Source: Candidatus Latescibacterota bacterium (GTDB lineage: Bacteria > Latescibacterota > UBA2968 > UBA8231). Taken from it: DNA of 64,000 nucleotides. The notes below the pieces were generated by a model. The model saw only the letters and a list, made by a program, of their open reading frames with translations. It was not told where the DNA came from and did not search any database. The stretch spans positions 1,152,001-1,216,000 of the forward strand of contig CBDETY010000003.1 in assembly GCA_965243025.1 (NCBI GenBank), written 5' to 3'. Below, one piece after another: positions 19,297 through 58,492 of the stretch (position 1 is its first letter; every line of letters begins with the position of its first letter). The position numbers were made by a program, and so were the translations under genes.

Positions 19297-20853
19297 TTAC
19301 AGCACTTTGCTCGTAAGGCGAATCTCCAGCCCTTCGAATCCGAGCACCTCGTAGCAGGTTCCCCCGGTGCAGGCGAGACCGGTGCGCCGTTTGCCGGCGA
19401 ACAGGGTTGCGGTATGCGCCTCGCGGAACAGCCAGCTCGTCCCCAGGGCCCACCACCAGGTCGCGCCCGCCTGCGAGGCCCCGGTTTCAAGCGGGTCGTT
19501 GGACCGCTGCAGCTGCAGCGACCAGGTCCAGGCGGGAAAGCGGCTGACCTCGGCCGCCGCCAGCAGGTTCTCGTAGGGGAAGCGCCTGCTGCCGAAACGG
19601 CGGTCGACGTCCTGGAACTGAAGGTCGGCGGCAAGGGCGTACCGGGAGCCCGCGGACCAGTCCCACCGGGTGCCCGCGGTCACCCGCTTCTCGTTCTCCA
19701 GTATGCGGGTGCGCGCGTAATCGAAGAAGACCTGCCCGTACAGCGCCTCCCCCACCGGGGAATCGAGCTGCATGAAGTACTCGCTCAGGGACTTCGCCTC
19801 CTCGCCGGGACGGGGCCCCCGGCGGGTGGCGAGGTTCCAGGCGGCGATCAGCCCGACCTGCCGCGGCAGGGCCCAGGTCAGCTCCGCCTGAAACCCGGTT
19901 TCGTCGTCGGGCAGCAGGGTGTGCGTCTGCCGGTTCAGGAGGAAGGCTTCGTGCTCCCGGATCAGCGTCGGCGGGTTGTTGATGGCGGGGAAGTTGAAGC
20001 CGTCGTAGTCCTTGAACTCGAGGCTCAGCCCCCAGGCGCCCCCCGTGAAGGTGCTTGAAAGGTAGAGCCCCCGCGCGTGCTCGCGGTCGAGGGAGAACCA
20101 GCTGTCGAGAGCCGGATCGATGCGGGCGTACTCGCCGTACAGGTCGCCGTACCAGTCCGGCAGACCGAGCGCCTCCAGCAGCCGTCCGAGACGGACCCGG
20201 GCATGGGTGGTGGCGCCGCGTTCTTCGCCGTCGAAGTCGAGCACTCCCGTCCCGAACTCGAGGCCGGTCCAGGGGCTGGCCCTGAAAGCCCCCCCGGAAA
20301 CGCGGCCGAGGCGGCGGTCGGGGCCCTTCCTGCCGGGGGCGACCTCGCTGTCCACCGGGCGGCCGGTGAGCAGCAGCACCTCGACGTCTCCCCGGCGGTA
20401 GCGGACCTGGAACCCGTCGAGGTCCTGCGTTATCTGGTAGCGTCTCCGGGAGACGCGGTTTTCGGTGATGACCCCGGGAAGCTCGAAGGCGTGCAGCAGC
20501 AGGCCGCTGCCGACCAGGGTGAGGCAGGTCCCCGCGGTCGCCTCGAAGCCTCCCTGCCGGTAGGAGAGGGAGCGCTGGGCGAGATGGAAGTAGTCGCGTC
20601 CGCTTTCGCTGGAGCGGAAGGCCTCGCTGCGCAGGCTGGCGAGGAATCCCGAGGTTTCCAAACCGAAGTTCAGCTGCTGGTACACGGTGCGCAGATCGCG
20701 CGGCTCGGACCCCGGCAGGTTGCCTAGCTGGTACTCGTGGTGGGCGGTGAGCTGCGGCTGGGAGACGGCGGGGGGCGCTGCCAGCATGCCTGCGAGAAAC
20801 AGACGGGCGGCTCGCCGGCGGGGTGATGTAGCTTTATCTGCTTTCTGCGGCAT
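19297..20853 (-). CDS. Putative outer-membrane beta-barrel protein, DUF6029-like
   Basis: Signal peptide, GSGLLL..FE, EFKDY, NNPPTL..EH, DETGFQAE, amphipathic strands, C-terminal GLACTGGTC...FEGLEIRL. Confidence 0.7.
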   Translation of the reverse strand: MPQKADKATSPRRRAARLFLAGMLAAPPAVSQPQLTAHHEYQLGNLPGSEPRDLRTVYQQLNFGLETSGFLASLRSEAFRSSESGRDYFHLAQRSLSYRQGGFEATAGTCLTLVGSGLLLHAFELPGVITENRVSRRRYQITQDLDGFQVRYRRGDVEVLLLTGRPVDSEVAPGRKGPDRRLGRVSGGAFRASPWTGLEFGTGVLDFDGEERGATTHARVRLGRLLEALGLPDWYGDLYGEYARIDPALDSWFSLDREHARGLYLSSTFTGGAWGLSLEFKDYDGFNFPAINNPPTLIREHEAFLLNRQTHTLLPDDETGFQAELTWALPRQVGLIAAWNLATRRGPRPGEEAKSLSEYFMQLDSPVGEALYGQVFFDYARTRILENEKRVTAGTRWDWSAGSRYALAADLQFQDVDRRFGSRRFPYENLLAAAEVSRFPAWTWSLQLQRSNDPLETGASQAGATWWWALGTSWLFREAHTATLFAGKRRTGLACTGGTCYEVLGFEGLEIRLTSKVL

Positions 20854-20902
20854 CGTAGTTTCTCGACACAGGGAAAAACAAGCGATTCGGCGGTTAGGCT
20901 CA

Positions 20903-21688
20903 ATGGAGCGATCTGTTTTCGAGGGGCTGGACGGCAAGCAGGGGGCAGAGCGGTCGGAGAAACCGCGGACGGCAGGCCTGACCATGGCGGTCGACTGGGG
21001 CATGGGGCTGAACCGGCAAAGAGACCTGCAGGATTCGAGCGGTCCTTACATTGATTTTGCAAAGGTGGCGGTCGGTGTTTCCCGGCTTCTTTCCGGCTCC
21101 ATGCTGCAGGAAAAGATCGACTCCTATCTCGCCGCGGACATAGAGCCTTTTCCGGGGGGGCAGTACCTCGAGTACGCCGAAAGGGAAGGGAAGCTGGAGC
21201 GCTATTTGGAGGCGGTCGCCGAGGCCGGTTACCGCTGGGTGGAGGTCTCCGACAACCTGCTTCCCGCAACAGCGGCCTGGAAGGAAAGGACCATACGCAG
21301 GGCCCGGGAGGAGTTCGGCCTGAACGTCCTCGGCGAGGTCGGCAGGAAGGAGGGCCTCGAGAACTCCATACCCCTGCCCGACAACGCCGGTATATGCCTC
21401 GGAGCCGGGGCCCGGCTCATCCTTCTGGAAGCCGCCGAGCTGCTGGCAGGCGACGCCGCGACGCCGGCAGCAGTCGAGGAGATCGTCGCGGCCGCCGGCC
21501 TGGAGAAGGTGATGTTCGAGCTTCCCGGGCCGTGGATCGAAGGGGTGACCGACACCGACGTCCACCGCCTTCGGCGCGACCTGATCGACCGCTACGGAAC
21601 CGAGGTCAACATCGGCAACGTCGCTCCCGACGACCTGATGTCGCTCGAAACCTACCGCCGCGGACTCGGAGTCAACGCCGGCAGCTGA
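20903..21688 (+). CDS. comA: Phosphosulfolactate synthase (ComA family)
   Basis: KPRTAGLTMAVDWG, YIDFAK, PGG..LE, VEVSD, EVGRK, ILLEA, KVMFE, VNIGNV, LETYRRGL. Confidence 0.88.
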   Translation: MERSVFEGLDGKQGAERSEKPRTAGLTMAVDWGMGLNRQRDLQDSSGPYIDFAKVAVGVSRLLSGSMLQEKIDSYLAADIEPFPGGQYLEYAEREGKLERYLEAVAEAGYRWVEVSDNLLPATAAWKERTIRRAREEFGLNVLGEVGRKEGLENSIPLPDNAGICLGAGARLILLEAAELLAGDAATPAAVEEIVAAAGLEKVMFELPGPWIEGVTDTDVHRLRRDLIDRYGTEVNIGNVAPDDLMSLETYRRGLGVNAGS

Positions 21689-21744
21689 TCTGTCGGCGCA
21701 CTTCGTGACGTTTGTGATTACAAGTTCGCGCCGCGCCTCGAATT

Positions 21745-21768
21745 GCCGTTCGCCCGCCGGCGAACGGC
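21745..21768. terminator. Perfect 10-bp hairpin downstream of comA (possible terminator or processing site)
   Basis: GCCGTTCGCC-CGCC-GGCGAACGGC; no clear U-tract. Confidence 0.3.
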
Positions 21769-21838
21769 CACGGAAATCGGTATAAATGACATTCAGCCCG
21801 ACACTGTACAGGACAGCGGTCCCCGCAGGCCGTGCTCC

Positions 21839-22684
21839 ATGAGGTCGGCCACCGCTTTCGCGCCCGGAAGCATTTCCGGTCTCTTCAAGATCATCGCCGA
21901 CGACGACCCGGAGAAGATGCACTCCCTCGGGCTCAGCTTCACCGTTGCCGAGGGGGCCGCGGTCACCGTTTCGGAAGCCTCGCGCACCGCCGTCACCTTC
22001 AACGGCGAGGAGATCCGCTTCCCGACGGTGGCGACCCTCGCCGGGCGGCTGAGCGACGGCGCTTTCGATATCGCCGTCGAGTCGCCCCTGCCGCTGAGCT
22101 GCGGATTCGGCCTGAGCGGGGCCTCCACCCTCGCTGCGGCTTACGCCATCGACCGCCTCCTCGGCCTTGGTATGGCGGCCGAAGAGCTGGCCCTGCACGC
22201 CCACGTGGCCGAGGTGGAGAACCTGACCGGCCTCGGCGACGTCTGCGCCCAGTACCACGGCGGATGCCTGGTCAAGCTGGCCCCCGGGTCCCCGCTGGTC
22301 GCGCAGCGCCTCGCCGTGGCGGAGGGAGAGCCGATCCACTTCCGGTATTTCGGGCCCATAAGCACCAGGGAGGTGCTGTCCGATCCGCGCCGCGCCGCCG
22401 CGGTCAACCGGGCCGCCGACGCCGCCCTGCGGCAGCTGTCCGGGCTGACCGGCCGCGAACAGGTGCCGGTCTCCGAGTGCGTGCGCGTCTCCAGGAGGTT
22501 CGCCGAAGACAGCGGCCTGATGACCGATCCGCGGGTCGGGGAGACGGTCGCCTCGGTGGGTGCGTCCGGCGGGGAGGCCTCGATGATCATGCTCGGGCAC
22601 GCCGTCTTCAGCACTGTCCCGTTCCCGGGCTCGACCGAGACTTCGCTGTCCCTGGTTCCTGCCAGGGTGCTGGACGGACCATGA
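21839..22684 (+). CDS. pok: Archaeal-type pantoate kinase (GHMP kinase family)
   Basis: AFAPGSISGLF, S.G.SF, PLSCGFGLSGA, AHVAEVENLTGLGDV.AQ..GG, ASMIMLG.AVF. Confidence 0.85.
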   Translation: MRSATAFAPGSISGLFKIIADDDPEKMHSLGLSFTVAEGAAVTVSEASRTAVTFNGEEIRFPTVATLAGRLSDGAFDIAVESPLPLSCGFGLSGASTLAAAYAIDRLLGLGMAAEELALHAHVAEVENLTGLGDVCAQYHGGCLVKLAPGSPLVAQRLAVAEGEPIHFRYFGPISTREVLSDPRRAAAVNRAADAALRQLSGLTGREQVPVSECVRVSRRFAEDSGLMTDPRVGETVASVGASGGEASMIMLGHAVFSTVPFPGSTETSLSLVPARVLDGP

Positions 22685-23412
22685 CCGACGTACCGGAAAC
22701 CCACCCGCGCTACGAATCGCTGCGCCTGCGGGACGCCGTGGTCGCCGGCGTCGAACGCGGGGTGACCTCGGTCCACGGGCTGATCGCCCACGGCCGCGGC
22801 GAGGCCTTCGACTACCTGCTCGGAGAGCGCACCCACGACTTCGCCCATGAGGCGGTCGCCGCCGCAGCGGCCATGCTGGCGTCGGCGCAGCGGCCGGTGG
22901 TGTCGGTCAACGGCAACGCCGCGGCCCTGGCGGCCGACGGGCTGGTGGCGCTGGCCGAGGCCCTCTCCTGCCCCCTGGAGGTCAACCTGTTCCACAAATC
23001 GCGGGAGCGCGAGCGTGCCATCGAGGAGCTGCTGGTCGAAAGCGGGGCGGCCCGGGTGCTGCTTCCCGACCCCGGCACCTTCCTCGAGGGGATCGACTCC
23101 AACAGGCGCTACGTCCACCCCGAGGGGATTCACCGGGCGGACGCGGTTTTCGTGCCGCTCGAGGACGGCGACCGCTGCCGGATTCTGCGCGCCGCCGGCA
23201 AGGAAGTGGTGACTGTCGACCTCAATCCCCTGTCGCGCACGGCGAAGCTGGCCAGCATCTCCATAATCGACAACGTCGTCAGGGCGATGCCCCTGCTGGT
23301 CGACGCGGTGTCGGCGGCGGCCTCCGGCCCGCATGGGAGCCGGCGCCTGCTCGAGGAATATGACAACGGCCGCATCCTGGAGGCGGCGGAGCGATGCATG
23401 AGGAACCGATGA
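22681..23412 (+). CDS. pps: Archaeal-type 4-phosphopantoate--beta-alanine ligase (phosphopantothenate synthetase)
   Basis: HPRYESLRLR, GLIAHGRGEAFDYLLGERT, PVVSVNGN, LEVNLF, VPLEDGDR, VDLNPLSRT, DNVVRA; ATGA overlap with the kinase gene. Confidence 0.92.
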   Translation: MTDVPETHPRYESLRLRDAVVAGVERGVTSVHGLIAHGRGEAFDYLLGERTHDFAHEAVAAAAAMLASAQRPVVSVNGNAAALAADGLVALAEALSCPLEVNLFHKSRERERAIEELLVESGAARVLLPDPGTFLEGIDSNRRYVHPEGIHRADAVFVPLEDGDRCRILRAAGKEVVTVDLNPLSRTAKLASISIIDNVVRAMPLLVDAVSAAASGPHGSRRLLEEYDNGRILEAAERCMRNR

Positions 23413-23584
23413 GGTCCCGGTCCCTGCTGACTGTAACAACCGGAGTCGCCCCGCTTGCGTTGCCAGCCGGTTCAGACGCGAGGGAGCGGGGAGCTGTTTC
23501 CGGCTCCGCGGTTCCCGGGGACGACCCCTTTCCCGAACGCCGGTGCGGCCGTCCCCGGCCGGGTCCGGAGGGGAAAAGGGGGGA

Positions 23585-24574
23585 ATGAAGCTGTACCCCG
23601 ACCACGAGCTGCCGACCCGCGACGATGTGGTCGCGGCGCACCGTTTCATCGGCCCCTACCTGCCGCCGACCCCGCTGGTCCGGGCCCACTCCCTGTCGCA
23701 GCAGCTCGGGTTCGACTACTGGGTCAAGTGCGAAAACGCGCAGCCGGTGGGGGCCTTCAAGGTCCGCGGCGGGGTCAACCTGCTGGGCAACCTCGACGGC
23801 GGGGTGAAACGCCTCGGAGTGGTCACCGCGAGCACCGGCAACCACGGACAGTCGATCGCCTATGCCGGCGGCCTCTTCGGAATCCCGGTGATCATCTACG
23901 CCCCCGAGCGGAACGTCAACCCGGTGAAGATGCAGGCGATGCGCGGCCTCGGAGCGGATGTGCGCCTGTTCGGGCGGGACTTCGACGAGGCGCGCGGGGA
24001 GGTGGAGCGGGTAGCCGCGGGCGAGGGCATGCGCTACGTCCACTCGGGCAACGAGCCGCTCCTGATCGCCGGGGTCGGCACCATCGGCCTGGAGATCGCC
24101 GGGGCCCTCCCGGACGTCGAGGTGATCATCGTCCCTGTCGGAGGGGGCAGCGGCGTCTGCGGTACCGCCCTGGCGGTGAAGGAACAGCGGCCGGCGATCC
24201 GCATCATCGGCGTCCAGTCCGCTTCGGCGCCCGCCTGCCGTGAGGCCTGGAAAACCGGAAACCTTCAGGTCGAGTGCGCGATGAACACCGAGCACGAAGG
24301 GCTGGCGACCCGGGTGCCGTTCGCGATGACCATGCAGCTGATGTGGGAGCTGCTCGACGATTTCCTGCTCGTCACGGACGCGGAGATCAACGAGTCCATC
24401 CGCCTGCTGGCGCGGCACACACGGCAGCTGGCGGAGGGGGCCGGGGCGGCGGCCACCGCTGCCGCGCTCAAGCTGAGGGAGGAGCTGCGCGGGAAGAGGG
24501 TCGCCGGAGTGCTGAGCGGGGGCAACCTGCCCCTGGCGCGCCTAGCCGGCCTGTTTGCCGGAAGTGAATCCTGA
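23585..24574 (+). CDS. PLP-dependent threonine/serine dehydratase family protein
   Basis: KCEN.QP.GAFKVRG, ASTGNHGQ, PVGGGSG, EGAGAA, LSGGN; no ACT domain. Confidence 0.9.
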   Translation: MKLYPDHELPTRDDVVAAHRFIGPYLPPTPLVRAHSLSQQLGFDYWVKCENAQPVGAFKVRGGVNLLGNLDGGVKRLGVVTASTGNHGQSIAYAGGLFGIPVIIYAPERNVNPVKMQAMRGLGADVRLFGRDFDEARGEVERVAAGEGMRYVHSGNEPLLIAGVGTIGLEIAGALPDVEVIIVPVGGGSGVCGTALAVKEQRPAIRIIGVQSASAPACREAWKTGNLQVECAMNTEHEGLATRVPFAMTMQLMWELLDDFLLVTDAEINESIRLLARHTRQLAEGAGAAATAAALKLREELRGKRVAGVLSGGNLPLARLAGLFAGSES

Positions 24575-24686
24575 AGGAGGCTGGCCGGGCTCCCAGGTCG
24601 CTGATTCCCGGAGGGCTCATGGCTCCCGGCCGGCTCAACCGTTTGTTCGATCCCATGTCGACATCTGTGAGTCTTTTTCGAAAGGC

Positions 24687-25787
24687 ATGACCATGGCACC
24701 AGCGACAACCCCCGAGCAGATCAGGGCCAACCTGGCGGAGATTCCCCGCATCAGGTGGTCGCACATCCCCACCCCGTTGGAGGAATGGAAGAGCCTGCGG
24801 AGCAGGATCGGCGGTCCCCGCCTGCTGGCCAAGCGGGACGATACCACCGGGCTGGCCTACGGGGGGAACAAGTCGCGGCACTTCGAGTTCGAGATGGCCC
24901 ACGTCAGGAACCAGGGTTTCGACACCCTGATCTGCGTCAACAACTTCCACTCGAACCACGCCCGGGTCGCCGCCGCCGGATGTGTCAAGGCCGGGATCCG
25001 CTACATCCTGGTTTCGGTGGGAGAGACGGAGCGCCCCATTCAGGGGAACCTGCTGCTGGTAAAGCTGATGGGAGGGGAGATCCACCGCCTGCCCGCGGGG
25101 GAGGATTCCTCGGCTTGCGCCGAAGCCATAGCCTCCAGGGTGCGGGCCGAGGGCGGTAACCCGTACATACTCAACGACGACTGGTTTCCGCAGATCATCG
25201 GGACCATCGGCTTCGTCGAGGCCGGCCTCGAGTTGATGACCCAGCTCGCCGCGTACGGCATCGAGCGCATCCACGTCTGGGGGCTGGTCGGCGCCTCCCT
25301 GCCGGGACTGGCCTTGCTGGCGAAGAACCTCGGGCTCGACTGGAAAGCCACAATGGTCCTCTACAGTCCCGGCGATGTCGGCGCGGTCCGCGCCGGGATG
25401 GTGGACCGGGGCAGGAAGGCGGCGGAGTTCATGAAGCTGCCGCTTTCCCTCGACCCGGAGGACGTCGAGATCGTCGACGGCTTCTCCGGACCGGCGTACG
25501 CGGCCCCGACCGAAGCCGCCTTCGAGGCGATTCACCTCGTGGCCCGGACCGAGGCGGTGATTCTCGACCCCAACTACACCGGCAAGTCGATGTCGGCGCT
25601 GATCGACCGCGTCCGGTCGGGCCGGTTCCCCGAAGACCGGACGGTGCTATTCCTGCACTCGGGCGGACTGCCGCAGGTGTTCGCCTTCAACGAGGAGCTT
25701 GCCGCCTGGAGAGGCCCTGATGAAGACTGGGGCCGCCTGTCCGGGAATGGGGCCGGGCGGCGGGGGACAGGTGGCGGCAGCAGGTAA
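24687..25787 (+). CDS. D-cysteine desulfhydrase / ACC deaminase / cysteate sulfo-lyase family PLP enzyme
   Basis: PTPL, KRDDTTGLAYGGNK.R, SNHAR, GNLLL, EAVILDPNYTGK, FLHSGG. Confidence 0.85.
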   Translation: MTMAPATTPEQIRANLAEIPRIRWSHIPTPLEEWKSLRSRIGGPRLLAKRDDTTGLAYGGNKSRHFEFEMAHVRNQGFDTLICVNNFHSNHARVAAAGCVKAGIRYILVSVGETERPIQGNLLLVKLMGGEIHRLPAGEDSSACAEAIASRVRAEGGNPYILNDDWFPQIIGTIGFVEAGLELMTQLAAYGIERIHVWGLVGASLPGLALLAKNLGLDWKATMVLYSPGDVGAVRAGMVDRGRKAAEFMKLPLSLDPEDVEIVDGFSGPAYAAPTEAAFEAIHLVARTEAVILDPNYTGKSMSALIDRVRSGRFPEDRTVLFLHSGGLPQVFAFNEELAAWRGPDEDWGRLSGNGAGRRGTGGGSR

Positions 25788-25823
25788 ATCCCGGGGCGGG
25801 GAGCGGACCCGCCGGATTCCCGA

Positions 25824-27776
25824 ATGTTATCCGTAGACAACGTAGCCAAGATTTTCGGAGACCAGGTCCTTTTCCGGAACGCGAGCTTCGCCGTGGGCGC
25901 CGGCGAACGCATAGGAGTAGTAGGACCGAACGGCGCCGGCAAGACGACCTTTTTCCGCATGCTCGCCGGTGAACTGCTTGCCGACGAGGGGGAGATCCGG
26001 TCGCCGAAGAACTACAGCGTGGTCCAGCTTCGGCAGGAGTGGCTGCCGCTCCAGGGGGATACCGTGCTCGAGGCGGCGCTGCGGGAGTTCGCTCCCTGGT
26101 TCGAAGCGCGCGCCGGGATGGACCGGATCGAGCGGCAGCTGTCCGAATCCTCTGACGAGAAGCTCGTCGGGCGCTACCGGGAGATCGAGCACCGGTTCAG
26201 CATGCTCGGCGGCCACCAGGTCGAGCAGACGGCGAGGGAGCTGCTCGCCGGCCTCGGCTTCGCTTCCGGTCAGTTCGGCGAGCCCGCGGTGCAGCTCAGC
26301 GGCGGCTGGCGGATCCGCTGCCACCTCGCCGGCCTGCTGCTGCAGGAGGCGGATCTGCTGCTCCTCGACGAGCCGACCAACCACCTCGACATCCGTTCGG
26401 TCAAGTGGTTCGAGGAGTTCCTCGGGCAGTACCGCCAGTCGTTCATGCTGATCAGCCACGACCGCCGGCTGGTGCAGCGTCTCGCCCGCGGCATTCTCGA
26501 GTTCGCGCCTCCGCAGCTCACCCTGTGGCCCGGGTCGCTCCGGCAGTACGAGACCCTCAAGCAGCAGCGTATCGACCAGCTGGAAGCGACGATCGCCAAC
26601 AGGCAGAAGGAGGTGGAACGGCTCGAGGATTTCGCCCGGCGCTTCCGCGCCAAGGCGACGAAAGCGCGCCAGGCCCAGAACCGGCTCAAGACCGCCGGCC
26701 GCTACCAGGAGCAGATCGAGGAGCTGCAGAAGTCGATGCCGGTGATTTCCAGGCGTCCGGCCAGCTTCCGGCTGGAGCTGGAGCGGCGCCTGCCGAGCCG
26801 GGTGCTGGAGTTCGAGAAGGCGGTTTTCGGGTACCGCGCCGACAGGCCGCTGTTCGAGCTGCCGCGTTGCGTCATCGAAGGGGGCAGGAAGATCGGCATC
26901 GTCGGCGTCAACGGCGCCGGCAAGTCGACCTTCCTCAAGTGCTGCGCCGGAGAGCTGCCGCTGCTTTCGGGCAGCAGGCAGCGGAGCGACCAGGTCGCCA
27001 CCGGCTTCTTCGCCCAGCACCGCATGGAGGAGCTGCCCCTGCCCAGCGTCGCCCTCGATTATCTCGCCGAGCAGAGCTTCGGCAACCCTCCGGCGCGGGT
27101 GCGCTCCCTCGCCGCCAGCCTCGGGCTCTCGGGAGGGGATCTCGAGAAGCGGATCGAAGTGCTGTCTGGCGGTGAGAAGGCCCGCGTCAGTCTGGCCCGC
27201 ATCCTGTTGTCGAGGCCGGGCATGCTGCTGCTCGACGAGCCGACGAACCACCTCGACCTCGAAGCCTGCGACGCTCTCAAGCGCGGACTGGCCACGTACG
27301 AGGGAACCTTGCTGATCGTTTCCCACAACCGCGACTTCCTCGATTCCCTCGTCGACTCGATTCTCGAGATCCGGCCGGGAGAGGCGGTCCTGCATCACGG
27401 CAACTACAGCGAGTGGCTCGAGCGCCTCGAAGCCCGGGAGCAGGATGGGCTCCAGATGGCAGATCAGCCGAAGAAGCCGGCGGGGAAGGGGAGGAAGACG
27501 GCGGAGATGAAACGGCGCGAGGCCGAGCAGCGGCAGCAGCGCTCGAACCGTCTGAAGAAGATCCGCGGGGAGGTGTACGCGGCGGAGGCGAGGCTCAGAA
27601 AGTGCACCGCCGAGCTCGCCGATCTCGACCGCAGGCTGTGCCTGCCGGAAAGCCCCCGGGAGCCTTTGTTTCCCGAGTGGCTGAGGCGGCACGCCGAGCT
27701 GACCGCAGACCTTCCCCGACACGAGCAGCGCTGGCTGGAGGCGTCGGAGGAGCTCGAGCGCTTCGAGGGTCAGTAA
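25824..27776 (+). CDS. ABC-F family ATP-binding protein
   Basis: Two NBDs (GPNGAGKTT, LSGGW, LLLDEPTNHLD; GVNGAGKST, LSGGE, DEPTNHLD), linker KATKARQAQ, C-terminal coiled coil, no TM segments. Confidence 0.95.
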   Translation: MLSVDNVAKIFGDQVLFRNASFAVGAGERIGVVGPNGAGKTTFFRMLAGELLADEGEIRSPKNYSVVQLRQEWLPLQGDTVLEAALREFAPWFEARAGMDRIERQLSESSDEKLVGRYREIEHRFSMLGGHQVEQTARELLAGLGFASGQFGEPAVQLSGGWRIRCHLAGLLLQEADLLLLDEPTNHLDIRSVKWFEEFLGQYRQSFMLISHDRRLVQRLARGILEFAPPQLTLWPGSLRQYETLKQQRIDQLEATIANRQKEVERLEDFARRFRAKATKARQAQNRLKTAGRYQEQIEELQKSMPVISRRPASFRLELERRLPSRVLEFEKAVFGYRADRPLFELPRCVIEGGRKIGIVGVNGAGKSTFLKCCAGELPLLSGSRQRSDQVATGFFAQHRMEELPLPSVALDYLAEQSFGNPPARVRSLAASLGLSGGDLEKRIEVLSGGEKARVSLARILLSRPGMLLLDEPTNHLDLEACDALKRGLATYEGTLLIVSHNRDFLDSLVDSILEIRPGEAVLHHGNYSEWLERLEAREQDGLQMADQPKKPAGKGRKTAEMKRREAEQRQQRSNRLKKIRGEVYAAEARLRKCTAELADLDRRLCLPESPREPLFPEWLRRHAELTADLPRHEQRWLEASEELERFEGQ

Positions 27777-31627: not shown

Positions 31628-33592
31628 CTATTGCAGCCGGTTTCCCGTGACTCCCGCCAGCGCGTCGACGATCCAGAAAAGGCCGTACACGGCCGTATGG
31701 CCGAGTATCATTCCCATGAAGAAGGAGCGCGCTGTCAAGTGCGAACGCTGTCCCCCGAAGCGCTTGACCAGGGTTTGCATCCCCCAGGCGATGAAGGCGT
31801 TGATCGTCAGCTTGCCGAAAACCGAGCAGACCGGGAAACCGAGCGGATGAAGCGGCCACCACGGGTAGCGCCAGCGCGCCGCCATCAGGGCGCTCATCAC
31901 CAGGCCGCCGATTCCGGTATGCATCCAGCCGCCCGCCTCGGGAGCTGACGGCCGCTGGATCAGGGAGACGGCGTAGTCGCATACCGCCTGCGGCAGCCAG
32001 GTGAAGTGCCGGGACAGGTTGAGCCCCCCGTAGGCGTGGCAGATCTCGATCAGGGAGAAGGTTCCCGTCGCCGCGGCCAGCAGCGCCGCCGCCAGCATCG
32101 CCGCGAACATCCAGCCCCGCTTGCGCCCCAGCTGCTCGCCGAGCTTCAGGCCGTTGGCGCAGTGCGGCATGGAGAAGTTGAGAATGTCGTTGGCCCACAC
32201 CCGGCTGAAAAGCAGCCCCGTCAGGCCCGACGCCCCCAGCGCCCCGGAACCGAGAATCGATACGGTGACGTCCGGGGCGACCATCGGCGGAAAAAGGGTC
32301 GCCACCCCTCCCTCGGCGCAGAGACGGGTCAAGGCGACGAAGATGACGAAAACCAGGAACAGGAACAGGGAGATTGCCAGCGGCGGGATACCGGCGAGAT
32401 ACAGCCAGCCCGCGATTACGGCAACGCTTGCCGCCAGGGCGGACAACGCCCCCCGGTAGGGGATGATCTCGTCGGAGTCGTCGATCTCCGGGGCGGGGGT
32501 GAATGCCTTGCGAACGACCTGCCCGAGGTGCCCCCTCGCCATCCACAACCCCCCCAGGACGAGAACGGCCATCGCCCCGACGCTCTGATGGGCGATGTGG
32601 TGGTGGGTGTAGGTCCAGTCGGAGACCGCGGGCATTTTCCCGCCCCAGCCGGAGATGTTGAAGACCCCGACCTGCAGGGTGTTCAGCAGGGAGAAGACCC
32701 AGAGGCTGAAGGCGATTTCCCTGTTGACGAGGTAGAAGAACCCGATGGCTCCGAAATGGATGAAGAGCTGCAGCGACGCCCCGCCGAAGACCGGGAGCGA
32801 CCGGCTCAGCGCGATCTGGGGCAGGCCCGGGAAATAGGCGTGCAGACCCTGGAAACCGAGCACGGCCACGGGCACGGCGAACCCGAGCCAGACCGGCGCC
32901 CTGCGGAAGAACGGCTTCACCGCCCCGTCTCCGTCCTCGATCATCGCGAGCGGCACCTGGATCAACGGGTAAGGCAGGTGTTCGTGCTGCGACCACTGGC
33001 GGCGCAGCATGACCATCAGGCTGAGAGTGCCGGCCTGCACCGCGGCCAGCAGCGGCAGCCAGCACAGGAGGGGAGTCGTCCACACCTTCCAGAGGTCCGT
33101 GCTGTCAACGGCCTCGGCCCCCTCGTACAGGGCGGTCAGCCCCTCGATGTCCCGCGGCGCGATCCATTCGGGAATGTGGGGGTGGAGCAGCTGGAACTGG
33201 TTCTCCGGGGTCGCGTAGTAGAAGGCGCCGCTCAGGATCGGCACGAAGTAGAAGACCAGCGAGAAGGTCGAGTTGGCGAGGACCATCAGGATGTAGACGG
33301 TGATCAGCTCGCCCCGCTGCAGGGCCCAGGCCGGCCGCCACGCCGCGAGGGCGGTGTTGACGATCCCCACGAGGATGAGAAACAGGAAGTGGGCAAGGGG
33401 GTTGATGTAGTACAGCCCCCCCGAGTTGGAGCCCTGCATGTAGAGGGCGATGTAGGGCCCGGCAGCCCCCATGGCCGCGGCGAGCCAGAGCCCGAGGGCG
33501 AGGGATCGCCGCGTCAGCGCCGAGGTCGGGGGGTGCGCCCCTGCGGCCAGGTGGCGCCGATAGCTTTCGGGAACGTCTCTCGATCGCCGCAT
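31628..33592 (-). CDS. Polytopic membrane protein, DUF6785/DUF6784-like (putative transporter)
   Basis: Many TM segments; GELITVY, FYYATPEN, LRRQW...EHLPYPL..VPL, LTRL.AEGG, WWPLHPLGF, FF.G.ILG. Confidence 0.8.
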   Translation of the reverse strand: MRRSRDVPESYRRHLAAGAHPPTSALTRRSLALGLWLAAAMGAAGPYIALYMQGSNSGGLYYINPLAHFLFLILVGIVNTALAAWRPAWALQRGELITVYILMVLANSTFSLVFYFVPILSGAFYYATPENQFQLLHPHIPEWIAPRDIEGLTALYEGAEAVDSTDLWKVWTTPLLCWLPLLAAVQAGTLSLMVMLRRQWSQHEHLPYPLIQVPLAMIEDGDGAVKPFFRRAPVWLGFAVPVAVLGFQGLHAYFPGLPQIALSRSLPVFGGASLQLFIHFGAIGFFYLVNREIAFSLWVFSLLNTLQVGVFNISGWGGKMPAVSDWTYTHHHIAHQSVGAMAVLVLGGLWMARGHLGQVVRKAFTPAPEIDDSDEIIPYRGALSALAASVAVIAGWLYLAGIPPLAISLFLFLVFVIFVALTRLCAEGGVATLFPPMVAPDVTVSILGSGALGASGLTGLLFSRVWANDILNFSMPHCANGLKLGEQLGRKRGWMFAAMLAAALLAAATGTFSLIEICHAYGGLNLSRHFTWLPQAVCDYAVSLIQRPSAPEAGGWMHTGIGGLVMSALMAARWRYPWWPLHPLGFPVCSVFGKLTINAFIAWGMQTLVKRFGGQRSHLTARSFFMGMILGHTAVYGLFWIVDALAGVTGNRLQ

Positions 33593-33712: not shown

Positions 33713-35683
33713 CTACACCGGAAGGTAATTGCCGATCATGCCCGTAGCCGCGTCGAGGATCCAGAACAGGCCGTAGGTCGCGAACTGCCCGAGGATCATC
33801 CCGAGGAAAAGGGGGCGCAATCTCATGTAGAGACCTACCCCGCCATAGCGCAGCACCGGGGCTTTTATCGCCCAGGCCAGGAAGGCGTTGAAGGCCATCC
33901 AGTTGAAGGCGGAGCTGATCGGGAAACCGATCGGGTGCAGCGGCCACCAGCTCCAGTAGCGGCGCGCCATGAGCAGGCCGCCCATCACGGCGCTGCCGAT
34001 GCCGGTGTGCAGCCAGCCCATCATGTCGGGCCCCGTCGGGGACTTCATGCGCGCCGTGATGTAATCGCCGACGTAGTTGGGAAGCCAGACGAAGTGCGGC
34101 GGGCGCAGATTGACCGCCCCGTGGGTGTAGGAGAGCTGCAGCAGGCTCCACATCGAACCGGCGATGCCGACCAGGATCGCCAGCAGCATGCACCAGAACA
34201 TCAGGCGCCGGCGGCCCTCGACCTGCTCGCCGAGCTTGAGCCCGTTGGCGACGTGGGGCATCGTGAAGTTGAGCAGGTCGTTGGCGAAGATGCGGACGAA
34301 TCCGAGACCGACGAGGCCGGAGGGGCCGTACATGGCGGTGCCGGCCGCCGAGAGGGCGGCGTCCGGAGAGACCAGGGGGGCGTAGATGACGGCGACGCCC
34401 CCCTCGACGATCACGCGCGTCAGCGTGATGTAGACGACGAAGGCGAAAAACAGCACCAGGAGAGTGCCCGGCAGGGGTATCCCGGCGGCGGTCATCCAGT
34501 AGACGATAACCGCCATGCCGAGAATCAGCCCGAGGACCGCTGCCCGGTAGGACATGATCTCGTCCCCGTCGTCGACGTCGGGCGCCCCGGCGATGGCCTT
34601 GCGGAAAACCCGCTTGATATGCTCCCTGCCGACCCAGAAGCCGCCGAGAACCAGGACGATCGAAGCCCCCATGCCCTGGTGCACGAGGCTGTGCAGCCCG
34701 TAGCTCCAGACGCTGACCGCCGGCTCCTGGTCGATCCCCCAACCGATCTCGGTGTAGATCAGCTGCTGAAACTCGTTCAGCAGGGTGAAGACCCACAGCC
34801 CCAGGGAGACTTCCGTCTGGATCAGGAAGAAGAAACCGAGGGTGGCGAAGCTGAACCGCGAGCTGAACAGCGGAAAGGGAATGCTGAAGCTGAGGGAGGG
34901 GATGAACGGGAAGTAGGCGCTGAGACCGTTTACCGAGAGCAGCAGGACCGGCATCGAGAAGCCGACCCACATGACCGGGTTGCGGAAGAACGGCTTGAGG
35001 AGCGAACCGCGGTCGTCGTCCCTGACCATCGCCAGGGGCAGCTGCATCACCGGGTAGATGAGGCGCTCCTTCTCCACCCACTGGCGGCGCAGGATCACCA
35101 TCATGCAGATCATCACCACCTGCAGGGCGATCACCAGCGGCGCCCAGGCGAGCAGCGGGCCGATCCAGACGTCCCAGGGGATCTGCGAAGCGCCCCCGGT
35201 CGAGCCCTCGAAAAACGCCTGAATCGCCACCGGGTCCCTGGGGACCAGCCAGTCCGGGATGTACGGGTGAATCATCTCCGCCCAGTCGTTTTCCGCGGAG
35301 GCGTAGTAGAACGGGCTCGAAACCAGGGGGACCCAGTAGGCGACGAGCCCGGGGACGGAGTTGGCCAGCGCCATCATGATGAACAGGATGACGAGCTCGC
35401 CGCGGTGGAAGACCCAGGAAACCCTGAGCTTTCCGAGGACGACGTTGACGAAGACGATCAGGACGAACAGCGCGAACAGCGCGATCTGGCTGGTGAAGTA
35501 GGCCGAGGCGTTGGACGCCAGCATGTGCAGCGAGATGAAGGGCACCACCGCGCCGACCCCGAAGGAGAGGGCCAGCCCCAGGAGAATGGCGCGCGCGGTA
35601 ATGCCGAGGACCGGCGGGGAGCTGGCCGGGGTGGCGTCTCCGGGGTCTTTCAGGGCCGCGGGCCGGGAGGGAGAAACCGTCAA
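33713..35683 (-). CDS. Polytopic membrane protein, DUF6785/DUF6784-like (paralog of the neighbour)
   Basis: GEL, FYYASAEN, LRRQWVEKERLIYP, LTRVIVEGG, WWPLHPIGF, LFLGMILG; start codon uncertain. Confidence 0.8.
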   Translation of the reverse strand: MTVSPSRPAALKDPGDATPASSPPVLGITARAILLGLALSFGVGAVVPFISLHMLASNASAYFTSQIALFALFVLIVFVNVVLGKLRVSWVFHRGELVILFIMMALANSVPGLVAYWVPLVSSPFYYASAENDWAEMIHPYIPDWLVPRDPVAIQAFFEGSTGGASQIPWDVWIGPLLAWAPLVIALQVVMICMMVILRRQWVEKERLIYPVMQLPLAMVRDDDRGSLLKPFFRNPVMWVGFSMPVLLLSVNGLSAYFPFIPSLSFSIPFPLFSSRFSFATLGFFFLIQTEVSLGLWVFTLLNEFQQLIYTEIGWGIDQEPAVSVWSYGLHSLVHQGMGASIVLVLGGFWVGREHIKRVFRKAIAGAPDVDDGDEIMSYRAAVLGLILGMAVIVYWMTAAGIPLPGTLLVLFFAFVVYITLTRVIVEGGVAVIYAPLVSPDAALSAAGTAMYGPSGLVGLGFVRIFANDLLNFTMPHVANGLKLGEQVEGRRRLMFWCMLLAILVGIAGSMWSLLQLSYTHGAVNLRPPHFVWLPNYVGDYITARMKSPTGPDMMGWLHTGIGSAVMGGLLMARRYWSWWPLHPIGFPISSAFNWMAFNAFLAWAIKAPVLRYGGVGLYMRLRPLFLGMILGQFATYGLFWILDAATGMIGNYLPV

Positions 35684-35738
35684 TCCGCCCTGCCGTCCCC
35701 GGCCCCGGGGGCGCCCTCGAGGTCGATGCCGGTCGGTT

Positions 35739-36524
35739 TCATCCGGCCTTCTGCAACACCCGCCAGCGGTCGTAGAACAGCCGCATCTTCTCCGGCAGGG
35801 CTTCCCTGATGTTGCCGGCAAGGCGCCAGGCGAAGCGTCCGTCGAGCTCCTCGGGGGCCTCGTCGGGACGGTAGATGCGCAGGCCGCCGGTCAGCGTCAG
35901 CCGCCTTGGCAGGTCACGGGGCTGCCGGCCGCGGTGGATGAGGTGGCCGTTCCAGAAGATGCACTCCCCGCTTTTCAGCTCGACCTGCACCTCGCCGCTG
36001 ATGGGAAGGCGGGTGTCGACCACCAGCGCCTGGCGTTCCGCTTCGGTGCGGTAGCGCTTGTGGCTGCCGGGAACCACCCACAGGCAGGGATCGTCGAGCA
36101 GGGCCAGCTGCCACTTGATGCTCCCCATCGGCCGCGTGAGAATCTCCATCTCGCGCTCCCGGGAGACGTCGCGGTCCTTGCCGACGTCCCGGTGCCAGCC
36201 GGTGTCGTACCCGCTGTCGGCGCACCACAGGTGCACGTGGCCGAGCCGCAGCTCATCCCCCAGGAAAGCGCGGACGTAGCGCAACACCGGTTCCGAGATC
36301 AGGTACTCGGCGAAGACCGGCTCGCCGAACTCGGGGGCGATGAGGCCGAAAATGGCGGTTGCATCGGGGTCGTTCCCGGCGACGTCCACCTCCCCCGAGC
36401 GGACCTTGGCCCACACCCGCCCGGCCGCCGCCTGCAGCTCGTCGAGCATGCCGGGCTCGACCGCGTCGTCGGCGACGAAGTACCCCTGATCGAAGTATTG
36501 CTCTTTCGCTTTTTCCACATCCAT
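35739..36524 (-). CDS. PhyH-family dioxygenase
   Basis: YFDQGYFV, WHRD, WVVPGSH, LKSGECIFWN..LIHRG...R. Confidence 0.88.
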   Translation of the reverse strand: MDVEKAKEQYFDQGYFVADDAVEPGMLDELQAAAGRVWAKVRSGEVDVAGNDPDATAIFGLIAPEFGEPVFAEYLISEPVLRYVRAFLGDELRLGHVHLWCADSGYDTGWHRDVGKDRDVSREREMEILTRPMGSIKWQLALLDDPCLWVVPGSHKRYRTEAERQALVVDTRLPISGEVQVELKSGECIFWNGHLIHRGRQPRDLPRRLTLTGGLRIYRPDEAPEELDGRFAWRLAGNIREALPEKMRLFYDRWRVLQKAG

Positions 36525-36685: not shown

Positions 36686-38419
36686 TCAGCCGCCGCCTTC
36701 GACGACGACGATGGTGCGGTTGGCTTCCACGCCGGTCACCCTGTCCTCGAGACCGCTCGGCCAGACGACCACGACTTCGTCCACCGCTGTCCTTCCGCCC
36801 AGTCCGAAGCTGACGCGCAGGTCGCTGTGAGCGAGGTAGCTGTAGCTGCCCCGGACCTCGCGCACCAGGCGGAGATCTCCGGCGGCGATGCGGACGCGGG
36901 CGCCGATGCCGTCGCGGTTGCTGCGGCGGCCGGCCGCCTTGACCTTGAGCCAGTTGTTGCCGCCGCCGCGGTCGTTGCGCAGCAGGTTGGGCCGCTGCCC
37001 GACGTTGCCGACGAGCAGGTCGATATCCCCGTCCTCGTCGAAATCCCCGAAGGCGGTGCCGCGGCTGACCATCGGCGCGGTCACTGCTTCCCCTGCCGCC
37101 GCCGAGACATCCTCGAAACGGACCACACCCGCCGGGTCCGGCCCCAGGTTGCGCAGCAGCTGGTTCGCCTGCCCGTAGGTTCGCGAGCGGTCGAAGCGGG
37201 TGATGTTGTCGAGGACGTGGCCGTTGGCGATGAACAGGTCGAGGAAGCCGTCGTTGTCGTAGTCGAGAAAGCCCAATCCGAACGACAGCGGCCGCAGGGT
37301 CGGCAGCCCGATCCCGGCCGGGTAGGAGAAATGCAGGAAGGTGCCGCTTCCGAGGTTGCGGTACAGGCTGACCGGCTCCTGCTCGAAGTTGGTGACCACG
37401 AGGTCGACGGAGCCGTCGCCGTCGAAATCGCCGGCATCGACCCCCATCCCCGCCTCGCGCTGTCCGTCGAGGCCGTACGCCACCCCGGCGAGGCCGGCGA
37501 CGTCCTCGAAGGAGCCGACGCCGAGGTTGCGGTACAGGAAGTTGCGCGAACCGTCGTTGGCGACGTAGAGGTCGGGCCAGCCGTCGCGGTCGTAGTCGAC
37601 GGCGACGACGCCGAGCCCGCGCCCCTCGATGGAGACGGTGTCGACCATGCCCGAACGGCCGGTGACGTCGGCGAACGCGCCCCCCGCGTCGTTGCGCAGC
37701 AGGCGGTCCTCGGCGCCGGGAAACTGCCCGGGGTCGGGGTAGGCGCTGATTTTTTCCCCTGTTTTCCGGGGCCGTTTTTCCGTCGACTTCAGGTACGGGT
37801 CGAGATCCTCGTCGACCGAAGCGAAATCGAAGTGCACGTAATTGGTGATGTAGAGGTCGAGGTCCCCGTCGTTGTCGTAGTCGAAGAAGGCGCAGCCGGC
37901 GCCCCAGGCGGTGTCCCCCAGGGCGGACTCGGCGGTGACGTCGGCGAATCCGGGACCTTGGTTCCGGAACATTGCGTTGGCCCCGAAGTTCGTCACGTAG
38001 AGGTCGAGGCGGCCGTCGTTGTCGTAGTCGGCAGCGGCGCAGCCCATGCCGTAGCCCCCCGGATCTCCAGCCCCGGCCGCGGCCTCCACCTCGGTGAAGC
38101 GGCCCCCGTCGTTGCCGTAAAGGGCGTTGGCCGGCTCGGAGGCCTGGCTGTATCCGGGCAGCGGGGCGCCGTTGGGGAAGTAGAGGTCGAGGTCGCCGTC
38201 GCCGTCGTAATCGAGGAAGGCGACCCCGCCCCCCATGGTTTCGGGAAAGTACCGGCGCCCGCTCGCACCGGTCTGGTGCACGAACCCGATGCCGGCCCTG
38301 GCGGTTACGTCGACGAAGACAGGAGCCCCCGACCGGTCTGGGGCGGGTTCCCGGTCCCCGCCGGCCGGTGTCTGCAGCAAGACGACCGCGAGGAGCAGGT
38401 GGAAAGCGGGAGACTTCAA
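36686..38419 (-). CDS. CRTAC1-family FG-GAP repeat protein with ASPIC/UnbV domain
   Basis: Repeated DYDNDGDLDLY; F.DVT..AG; C-terminal NRDGIGARV...SYLAHSD...FGLG...V.WPSG. Confidence 0.92.
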   Translation of the reverse strand: MKSPAFHLLLAVVLLQTPAGGDREPAPDRSGAPVFVDVTARAGIGFVHQTGASGRRYFPETMGGGVAFLDYDGDGDLDLYFPNGAPLPGYSQASEPANALYGNDGGRFTEVEAAAGAGDPGGYGMGCAAADYDNDGRLDLYVTNFGANAMFRNQGPGFADVTAESALGDTAWGAGCAFFDYDNDGDLDLYITNYVHFDFASVDEDLDPYLKSTEKRPRKTGEKISAYPDPGQFPGAEDRLLRNDAGGAFADVTGRSGMVDTVSIEGRGLGVVAVDYDRDGWPDLYVANDGSRNFLYRNLGVGSFEDVAGLAGVAYGLDGQREAGMGVDAGDFDGDGSVDLVVTNFEQEPVSLYRNLGSGTFLHFSYPAGIGLPTLRPLSFGLGFLDYDNDGFLDLFIANGHVLDNITRFDRSRTYGQANQLLRNLGPDPAGVVRFEDVSAAAGEAVTAPMVSRGTAFGDFDEDGDIDLLVGNVGQRPNLLRNDRGGGNNWLKVKAAGRRSNRDGIGARVRIAAGDLRLVREVRGSYSYLAHSDLRVSFGLGGRTAVDEVVVVWPSGLEDRVTGVEANRTIVVVEGGG

Positions 38420-50764: not shown

Positions 50765-50976
50765 GGATAGCGGGTTTTCCAGATTGTCAGCGGATGCGGG
50801 TCCTGCGGCATGCACGGCCAATTCGCGTAAATTCTAATTTCATTCGCAGTTTGCAGCAACAAATCGCATCGCCGCCTCCCGGCCGGAGCGGGACCCGCCG
50901 GCGTTGCCGAATTCCGGGAATCTGGAGCATGCACCAGAGCAAGAAAGAACTGCATCCGTGCGCCGGGGCCGGTATA

Positions 50977-58341: not shown

Positions 58342-58419
58342 GCCGCCTGTTCGGATCACCGGTCTGCGGGATGGAAGCGAAGGATGAGGGCGTACGTGAG
58401 GAAAGGAACCCGCGGGCCC

Positions 58420-58456
58420 AAAAAAAGGGGGATGCACGATTCGTGCACCCCCCTTT
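58420..58456 (-). terminator. Rho-independent terminator of the 58493-59413 gene
   Basis: Minus strand AAAGGGGGGTGCACGA-A-TCGTGCATCCCCC followed by TTTTTTT, ~35 nt after the stop. Confidence 0.8.
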
Positions 58457-58492
58457 GAGACCGAATCGGACCGGAGGTCCGAAGCAATCAAC

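Follow-up and report, generated by a model that had tools for sequence, protein, structure and literature searches.

Bacteria usually make 4'-phosphopantothenate with PanC followed by a pantothenate kinase (CoaA or CoaX), whereas the pair made up of pantoate kinase (PoK) together with phosphopantothenate synthetase (PPS) is the archaeal pathway, and the order of these two middle steps of coenzyme A (CoA) synthesis has been proposed as a marker dividing Archaea from Bacteria. A stretch of 64,000 nucleotides from a Candidatus Latescibacterota genome (C3:1152001-1216000, on one of the three contigs of a 6.80-Mb assembly; hereafter the window, meaning the whole stretch analyzed) carries two adjacent genes that had been picked out from the sequence alone as PoK and PPS (hereafter the original prediction). 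The locus raises the questions (i) whether the two genes are what they resemble; (ii) whether they stand in for the bacterial route in this organism and its relatives; and (iii) where they came from.

Our answer, to which we would assign a probability of about 0.85, is that a coupled PoK/PPS operon replaced PanC and type III pantothenate kinase through one switch at the level of a family, and that the genes belong to a bacterial clade shared with Poribacteria. What carries it is the identity and adjacency of the two genes, their distribution, which is complementary to that of PanC and CoaX, and their phylogenetic placement. According to this proposal, PoK and PPS would be made from a translationally coupled operon serving the archaeal reaction order: the GHMP-family kinase would phosphorylate the 4-hydroxyl of D-pantoate with ATP, the PPS ligase would join 4-phosphopantoate and beta-alanine to give 4'-phosphopantothenate, and this product would enter the ordinary bacterial sequence of CoaBC, CoaD and CoaE. 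The pair would have displaced PanC and the type III kinase in this Latescibacterota lineage once, within one family, with mostly vertical inheritance afterwards, and would be part of the bacterial PoK/PPS clade that also contains the published Poribacteria genes. The start and end metabolites (pantoate and beta-alanine to 4'-phosphopantothenate) and the downstream enzymes are those of the PanC and CoaX route; the enzymes come from unrelated protein families and act in the reverse order.

Identity of the two genes

21839..22684, + strand: PoK-type GHMP kinase; ATG start at 21839, TGA stop at 22684; 281 amino acids
22681..23412, + strand: PPS (4-phosphopantoate--beta-alanine ligase); ATG start at 22681; 243 amino acids

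Both open reading frames (ORFs) lie where the original prediction had placed them, and the coupling it had described can be read directly in the sequence, the ATGA at 22681-22684 joining the PPS start codon to the overlapping PoK stop. The hallmark motifs it had quoted are likewise all present, far beyond chance: HAHVAEVENLTGLGDVCAQ in the PoK translation and GLIAHGRGEAFDYLLGE, VPLEDGDR and DLNPLSRT in that of PPS. Each gene occurs as a single copy in the genome.

The stretch 22681-23412 encodes a clear PPS, for which ligase activity is predicted. Its product matched PF02006 (PPS_PS) with an E value of 1.1e-60 (204.7 bits, cut-off 26.4) and the NCBIfam subfamily model NF010324 with 314.7 bits (cut-off 227), and the solved PPS structures 4mb0 (E 6.2e-63) and 3wdk (E 3.8e-62) covered residues 1-235 of its 243. 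Fifty archaeal PPS share 71 columns with a conservation of 90% or more, and at 69 of these the window protein carries the identical residue; the two exceptions are L128 (Gly in archaea) and I196 (Val in archaea).

For 21839-22684, sequence comparison points to a pantoate kinase-type GHMP kinase, with D-pantoate as its predicted substrate. A Pfam profile search identified the GHMP_kinases_N domain (PF00288, E 2.7e-12), and the top NCBIfam model was that of pantoate kinase, NF040725 (149.8 bits, E 7.7e-44), which outscored the next non-PoK family, homoserine kinase (28.9 bits), by about 120 bits. Among solved structures the Thermococcus kodakarensis pantoate kinase 6jbc came first (E 8.5e-15, aligned residues 6-260), the next relatives being mevalonate kinases at E 2e-5 or weaker, and 27 of 34 archaeal-conserved columns are identical. 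The residues Ser28, Ser104, His131, Glu134, Asp143, Arg155 and Thr186 of T. kodakarensis PoK are those that we take to be catalytic or pantoate-binding; on this assumption about their roles, the alignment with 6jbc pairs S29, S93, H122, E125, D134 and T176 of the window protein with identical residues at S28, S104, H131, E134, D143 and T186 (Arg155 is treated below). In the PoK tree the window kinase falls within the PoK ingroup (split from the outgroup with a support of 84 in the SH-like approximate likelihood ratio test, SH-aLRT, outgroup branches measuring 5-7 changes per site) and groups with archaeal PoK, apart from the IspE-, ThrB- and sugar kinase-like genes of the same genome. Membership of another GHMP subfamily, which had been named as the outcome that would speak against the original prediction, was not what we found.

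Probable replacement of PanC and CoaX

Bacterial panB, coaBC, coaD and coaE are present in the genome, which is rated 96.2% complete, while profiles for panC (PF02569), coaX (PF03309) and coaA (TIGR00554) found no match in it, the type II pantothenate kinase (PF03630) not being part of the search. Control genomes gave matches for each profile that was negative here (panC, coaX and coaA, as well as panD and panE, which are taken up below). Because panC, coaA and coaX are unmatched while CoaBC, CoaD and CoaE are kept, PoK and PPS represent the only visible route from pantoate to 4'-phosphopantothenate. The gene content of the genome, panB included, thereby bears out a pair that replaces the bacterial route rather than duplicating it.

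We extended the comparison to a set consisting of this genome and its 40 closest relatives (24 of the same family, 16 from three other families of the class). PF02006 and PoK matched the same 18 of 41 genomes, namely this one and 17 of the 24 family members, and none of the 16 outside the family; PoK and PPS are adjacent in all 18. The matches of PanC and CoaX likewise coincide, in 22 of the remaining genomes (6 of the 24 family members and 16 of 16 outside the family). Both routes together were found in 0 of 41 genomes, and a single family member, 90% complete, matched none of PanC, CoaX, PoK and PPS. The genomic setting of panB follows this division: it directly adjoins panC in PanC/CoaX genomes (e.g., G035:C1:1844457-1846114 and G017:C12:48612-50213) and is kept elsewhere, alone, in carriers of PoK and PPS, lying at C3:1560751 in the present genome, about 386 kb from the pair.

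Of the 168 genomes of the phylum, 33 have PPS; apart from the present genome, these are 31 of the 75 others of the family and one genome of another family. The carriers within the family belong to 14 of its genera, and four genera (43 genomes) are without any carrier. For comparison, PPS was present in 31 of 31, 15 of 25 and 23 of 25 genomes of archaeal control sets, and in 2 of 151 genomes of one phylum of small-genome bacteria (0.7-2.1 Mb).

The one carrier from another family (G071, 96% complete) has a different arrangement. At L065:7239-8805, its PF02006 PPS gene (NF010324, 307.8 bits) directly adjoins a type III pantothenate kinase-like gene (TIGR00671, 69.8 bits, cut-off 58.2), with no PoK within 8 kb of PPS and no panC in the genome. 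A hybrid route is possible there: the archaeal-type ligase could serve as a pantothenate synthetase, or else the CoaX-like kinase could take pantoate as its substrate.

A bacterial PoK/PPS clade

The PPS tree comprised 87 rows (a quick IQ-TREE run, LG+C20); it omits duplicate loci from a genome already included, two archaeal matches (one partial, one weak) and two family members that offered no usable locus. It contains a bacterial clade with an SH-aLRT support of 98 (99/97 in a careful 47-row tree), outside which the sampled archaea fall. Its members are 30 family rows, one small-genome bacterium (G168) and four NCBI-named sequences, labelled Planctomycetota, Gammaproteobacteria (two) and Poribacteria. 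The PoK tree (54 rows, with three further GHMP kinases of the window genome as the root, two truncated family rows dropped, archaeal rows, n=18, taken only where PoK lies within 1.5 kb of PPS) yielded the same bacterial clade with a support of 99. As the Poribacteria- and Lentisphaeria-labelled PoK have for neighbors the genera that adjoin them in the PPS tree, the two genes have travelled together. The labels outside Latescibacterota come from contigs of metagenome-assembled genomes (MAGs) of 3.4-14 kb, for which binning errors are possible.

Sequence identities agree with this picture. With the proteins of other genera of the family, the window PoK and PPS share 52-67% identity, while identity to archaeal proteins is 44-56% for PPS and 28-40% for PoK. 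The Poribacteria-labelled sequences are 60% (PPS) and 56% (PoK) identical to those of the window, and 77% and 67%, respectively, to those of the family genome G012. The PPS of the outlier G071 and of the small-genome bacterium G243 branch elsewhere, among archaeal PPS, and represent separate acquisitions.

The phylogenies thus confirm a supported bacterial clade for both proteins, apart from the sampled archaea, and they qualify the old cross-domain transfer proposed in the original prediction. Its age stands, given the ameliorated composition, the spread over 14 genera and gene trees that broadly follow rpoB; a direct transfer from an archaeon into this lineage is not demonstrated, the genes forming a separate bacterial clade. 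None of the trees resolves the archaeal sister group and, with it, the putative donor; the Thermoproteota grouping in the 87-row PPS tree, for example, hangs on a branch of length 0.0017.

The trees suggest that the Poribacteria sequence is nested inside the Latescibacterota family. It falls into a four-row clade with a support of 99/94, and the approximately unbiased (AU) test rejected a family-only clade with all four other labels as outsiders (p 0.0024, for a group picked after an earlier tree). With Poribacteria as the sole outsider, a family-only PPS clade was not rejected (p 0.227), nor was a family-only clade for PoK (p 0.293). More speculatively, and with odds that we would place well short of even, a single ancient transfer from an archaeon to a bacterium may have founded the bacterial PoK/PPS lineage with this family as its main reservoir, the genes of Poribacteria, and perhaps those of Planctomycetota, Gammaproteobacteria and Lentisphaeria, being secondary, bacterium-to-bacterium transfers among sponge symbionts and not separate acquisitions from sponge archaea; the same scenario takes a dehydrogenase encoded after PPS in genera that lack PanE (see below) as the missing ketopantoate reductase.

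History of the switch within the family

The rpoB tree was built from the 25 family genomes and five outgroups, with the other 11 outgroup genomes left out. The family received a support of 100/100, and the six PanC/CoaX genomes formed one clade (77/96). Since the PoK and PPS trees reproduce the two main carrier clades of the rpoB tree, the pair appears to have descended vertically within the family. In the maximum likelihood rpoB tree the PanC/CoaX clade lies inside the family, on weak nodes (55/88 and 53/87), a position that would mean a basal gain of the pair followed by a reversal. A single clade of carriers was not rejected by the AU test (p 0.208), and 45% of the bootstrap trees place the PanC/CoaX genomes on one side. 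The PanC of a family member is 54-55% identical to PanC of a sister family, and 4 of the 10 organism-named matches among its best 120 are labelled Latescibacterota, including the best named relatives; these values are compatible with vertical descent as well as with re-acquisition. We conclude from these trees that the family probably underwent one switch, in either direction, and the same data support the view that the acquisition of the pair is old.

Neighboring genes

Three genes flank the pair on the same strand.

20984..21688, + strand: ComA-like phosphosulfolactate synthase; PF02679 E 2.1e-43; TIGR03849 132.7 bits, below the cut-off of 280; 150 nt upstream of PoK
23543..24574, + strand: threonine/serine dehydratase-like pyridoxal phosphate (PLP) enzyme; PF00291 E 8e-78; top NCBIfam threonine dehydratase models all below cut-off; start codon uncertain
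24687..25787, + strand: CuyA/XcbE-like PLP enzyme (D-cysteine desulfhydrase family); PF00291 E 3e-34; under the cut-off of 450 with NF052482 (cysteate sulfo-lyase, 223 bits) as well as with NF052537 (XcbE, 198.6 bits)

The dehydratase-like gene begins 130 nt downstream of PPS. The gene orders differ among the genera of the family (numbered with g) as follows.

Window genus: ComA-like, 150 nt, PoK/PPS, 130 nt, dehydratase-like PLP enzyme, CuyA/XcbE-like PLP enzyme
g18: ComA, (S15 peptidase), HAD phosphatase, PoK, PPS, D-2-hydroxyacid dehydrogenase, HpcH/HpaI aldolase, dehydratase; partly overlapping
g8: as g18 from the HAD phosphatase onwards
g6: ComA, S15 peptidase, HAD phosphatase, PoK, PPS, dehydratase
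g15: PoK, PPS, dehydratase
g9, g11 and g3: PoK/PPS pair alone

The PLP dehydratase, downstream of PPS in g1, g15, g6, g8 and g18, is the most consistent linked neighbor, while the CuyA/XcbE-like gene is collinear solely in two same-genus genomes. ComA, a single-copy gene in the present genome, lies within 3 kb upstream of PoK in g1, g6 and g18 and was not found within 8 kb in g9, g11 and g3. The genera with linked genes all fall into one rpoB clade. ComA together with a phosphatase would yield sulfolactate, by established ComA chemistry; the linkage is unexplained, as we see no chemical need for ComA in the CoA route, and we regard the gene as a linked neighbor that is not required for that route. 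In one same-genus genome, ComA is in two pieces in different frames (L015:2374-3074 / L051:9641-10341) beside an intact PoK/PPS, by a frameshift or an assembly indel.

The dehydrogenase and aldolase genes lie between PPS and the dehydratase at L063:8555-10385 and also at L057, L060-L062, L066 and L068. No D-2-hydroxyacid dehydrogenase gene was found in the PoK/PPS cluster of the window genome itself, and clear orthologues of the aldolase/dehydrogenase cassette were not recovered among the many paralogues of that genome (best identities 44% and 30-36%). The aldolase as a substitute for PanB, through a formaldehyde-dependent ketopantoate synthesis, is ruled out, PanB being present in 41 of 41 genomes.

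Observations against replacement, and alternative explanations

Several observations weigh against the replacement of the bacterial route by PoK and PPS. The kinase stays far under the NCBIfam equivalog cut-offs (NF040725, 149.8 against 380 bits; NF041122, 67.6 against 500), these models having been built on methanogen and Thermoplasmata sequences, and PPS is slightly under that of the narrower archaeal equivalog NF041123 (286.2 against 300 bits). The presumed pantoate-binding or catalytic Arg155 of T. kodakarensis is replaced by K146 in the window PoK, a position that holds Lys in 33 of 33 rows of the bacterial clade and Arg in 18 of 18 archaeal rows; the clade also deviates from the 18 archaeal PoKs at position 11 (His to Asn/Ser) and position 28 (Gly to His). 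Because these substitutions are clade-wide and affect archaeal-conserved positions, substrate recognition may be altered. On the side of supply, PanE-type ketopantoate reductase (TIGR00745) and the pyruvoyl aspartate decarboxylase PanD (PF02261) had no match in the genome, and none of its three group II PLP decarboxylases reaches a curated aspartate decarboxylase cut-off: with their best models, the scores are 127, 123 and 82 bits for PanP (PLP aspartate decarboxylase, cut-off 606) and 208, 214 and 91 bits for diaminobutyrate decarboxylase (cut-off 900). Without PanE and a curated decarboxylase, the supply of pantoate and beta-alanine is incomplete on paper. PanE was above cut-off in 18 of the 41 genomes, and the genera of the family that lack it are g1 (3 of 3), g2, g6, g8, g18 and g16; in g8 and g18, the dehydrogenase gene located after PPS (e.g., L063:8555-9601) is a candidate ketopantoate reductase. 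Some members of the family, moreover, have the pair as part of a bigger conserved operon without an evident purpose. That bacterial PoK and PPS have the proposed activities and substrates and are essential is a prediction from sequence.

As to expression, one RNA library that carries the label sponge metagenome yields contigs with about 95% identity to the window; they cover ComA and the two PLP genes and leave 2 of 30 bins without coverage. One of them spans the spacer between ComA and PoK, where 41 letters stand in place of 107, and another spans the PoK-PPS junction. These contigs are, in favor of the proposal, a weak hint of expression of the locus in a relative of this strain; DNA carry-over is possible and the contigs prove no single transcript. 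On the + strand, a sigma-70/terminator scan of 20600-26000 had no hits; scans of this kind carry no information in this phylum.

The least improbable of the alternatives is that the pair belongs to a larger operon acting on another substrate, a sulfonated or other 2,4-dihydroxy acid, and that its product is a different, pantothenate-like amide. Such an operon would comprise ComA, the HAD phosphatase, the D-2-hydroxyacid dehydrogenase, the HpcH/HpaI aldolase and the PLP dehydratase. The tight, partly overlapping operons of g18 and g8, with reduced forms in g6, g15 and the window genus, are consistent with this, as are the PoK changes described above, including Arg to Lys146, and an aldolase acting with a D-2-hydroxyacid dehydrogenase would be expected to produce 2,4-dihydroxy acids, the class to which PoK substrates belong. 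However, the strict either/or relation with PanC and CoaX in 41 genomes is what replacement of the CoA route predicts, and no other phosphopantothenate route is visible although CoaBC, CoaD and CoaE are kept. In g9, g11 and g3, moreover, none of the extra genes lies within 8 kb of the pair; the ubiquity of PanB leaves the aldolase unneeded for ketopantoate; PPS keeps 69 of its 71 conserved columns; and the ComA gene that is split in one same-genus genome, possibly by an assembly error, stands beside an intact PoK/PPS. We therefore consider another substrate unlikely and retain the route to CoA as the probable function of the pair.

It is more improbable still that the genes are decaying relics in an organism that obtains phosphopantothenate, pantetheine or CoA precursors from a sponge host or neighboring microbes. 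The run labels do suggest a host-associated lifestyle, and the unmatched PanE, PanD and curated aspartate decarboxylase would fit such a dependence. Yet neither ORF is disrupted or duplicated, the two are coupled in translation, and nearly all conserved residues are kept; the genes have been maintained across 14 genera at 52-67% identity to the window proteins; no internal stop codon occurs in any of the 33 PPS matches; PanB is kept in all 41 genomes; and a relative possibly transcribes the locus.

Integrity of the locus

The weakest alternative is an error of assembly or binning. The pair sits 1.17 Mb into C3, a contig of 6,776,184 bp that also carries a bacterial-type rpoB (1824 bits), panB, coaBC, coaD and coaE, and the GC content at third codon positions (GC3) of PoK (0.89) and PPS (0.90) equals that of the flanking genes (0.81-0.90), panB (0.87) and coaBC (0.89), which agrees with the matching GC-rich codons and the bacterial surroundings of the original prediction. 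The near neighbors in the window are of bacterial families (DUF6029, FG-GAP/ASPIC-UnbV, DUF6785 and ABC-F), and 29 more ORFs of the window belong to bacterial-type or neutral families only, among them four FG-GAP/ASPIC-UnbV and two DUF6785/DUF6784 proteins as well as pentapeptide, TPR, SDR and aldo-keto reductase domains. Located so deep inside a 6.78-Mb bacterial contig and showing host codon bias, the pair is not a chimera.

Independent assemblies agree. The block PTP, DUF6029, ComA, PoK, PPS, dehydratase, CuyA-like, ABC-F is collinear in another two assemblies of the genus, of which one consists of a single contig of 7.05 Mb; chimerism at the boundaries, an outcome that the original prediction had named as speaking against it, is not seen. 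The closest named PPS record, labelled Candidatus Latescibacterota bacterium, is 86% identical and collinear over eight genes; a second record with this label is 61% identical. The locus or close variants of it occur in runs labelled sponge metagenome (three DNA, one RNA), coral metagenome and marine metagenome, labels that suggest a sponge- or host-associated lifestyle, and DNA contigs from three other sponge metagenome-labelled runs bridge parts of the locus. An artefact of assembly or binning, archaeal DNA on a bacterial contig or contamination is hardly worth entertaining, even for a genome rated 6.0% contaminated and for a family typical of archaea (found in the 4 archaeal and in 0 of 10 bacterial genomes among 14 controls), against the position, GC3 and collinearity of the pair, its presence in 31 further family members and the bridging contigs from other runs.

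Comparison with known systems

The Poribacteria report that the original prediction had mentioned exists (Thomes & Lescure 2020; PMC7883664). According to its main text, PoK occurs in 31 of 38 and PPS in 34 of 38 sponge-symbiotic Poribacteria ('Entoporibacteria'), which have bacterial-type dephospho-CoA kinase (DPCK) and CoaBC, no PanC or pantothenate kinase and no classical ketopantoate reductase, while free-living Poribacteria use the bacterial route; the Poribacteria PoK and PPS are placed nearer Euryarchaeota. In the features that this text describes, the present case is alike: a bacterial host from a sponge-type habitat, without PanC and pantothenate kinase, with bacterial DPCK and CoaBC and without a classical ketopantoate reductase; the labelled Poribacteria sequences fall, in addition, in the same bacterial clade as the window genes. 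It differs in the phylum, in a switch that is mapped inside one family on an rpoB tree, in the linkage of the pair to ComA and a PLP dehydratase, and in an archaeal sister without resolution in our trees, as against the position nearer Euryarchaeota given in that text.

Latescibacteria are unmentioned in the main text of PMC7883664; in the literature searched, papers since 2020 with the term 'pantoate kinase' concern bacteria only in the case of Thomes & Lescure 2020, with no Latescibacterota; and those combining Latescibacter with pantothenate included nothing relevant, as judged by title or abstract start. The suggestion of a lineage not yet reported thus holds for that text and this literature and fails for the databases, where NCBI and JGI already call some proteins of Latescibacterota MAGs 'pantoate kinase' (others being 'sugar kinase', 'GHMP kinase' or 'hypothetical protein'). 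As far as these sources go, this is a new lineage for a known phenomenon, previously published solely for sponge-dwelling Poribacteria. New here are the strict either/or map within one family, a clade of bacterial PoK and PPS genes to which Poribacteria also belong, the kinase substitutions found throughout that clade, and the PanE gap.

With the Thermococcus enzymes (PoK, 6jbc/6jbd; PPS, 3wdk-3wdm and 4mb0/4mb2), the window pair shares the protein families and the predicted order, kinase before ligase. All long conserved motifs of the Thermococcus PPS are also in the window PPS, and the Ser, Glu and Asp positions of PoK that we take to be catalytic are kept. In contrast to archaea, the host here is bacterial, with bacterial, not archaeal, CoaD and CoaE, and the genes form an ATGA-coupled operon, whereas PoK lies within 1.5 kb of PPS in 18 of 50 archaeal loci; the window PoK is distant from that of Thermococcus (E 8.5e-15) and bears the clade-wide substitutions.

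Beside the one published exception, the family provides a second, well-sampled bacterial phylum, with near-complete genomes that allow the swap to be placed, and a clean set of natural replacements for asking why one route displaces the other. The clade shared with Poribacteria recasts a 'transfer from sponge archaea' as a possible spread among symbiotic bacteria. Annotation is affected as well, many such kinases still being named 'sugar kinase' or 'GHMP kinase'. Because free pantothenate would never be formed on the PoK/PPS route, such an organism could in principle neither release nor salvage vitamin B5 through it; metabolic models of sponge symbionts are affected, since an organism of this kind would neither make nor use free pantothenate.

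Other observations

Four paralogues that combine FG-GAP repeats with a C-terminal ASPIC/UnbV domain lie in the window within 22 kb, at 36686-38419 (-), 50740-52893 (+), 52909-55893 (-) and 56152-58614 (-), and are adjoined by two FlgD_ig-domain proteins (46070-48238 and 48257-50821). Tandem DUF6785 + DUF6784 proteins are encoded at 31628-33592 (-) and 33713-35821 (-), with E values of 1e-109 and 1e-121. Besides a normal rpoB, relatives of genus g9 have a second, divergent rpoB-like frame of about 1,930 amino acids (G010:C1:33719-36163 and G023:C3:766009-768453) that matches three separate parts of the RpoB model, and many genomes of the class contain an open frame of about 1,030-1,130 amino acids with similarity to the RpoB C terminus.

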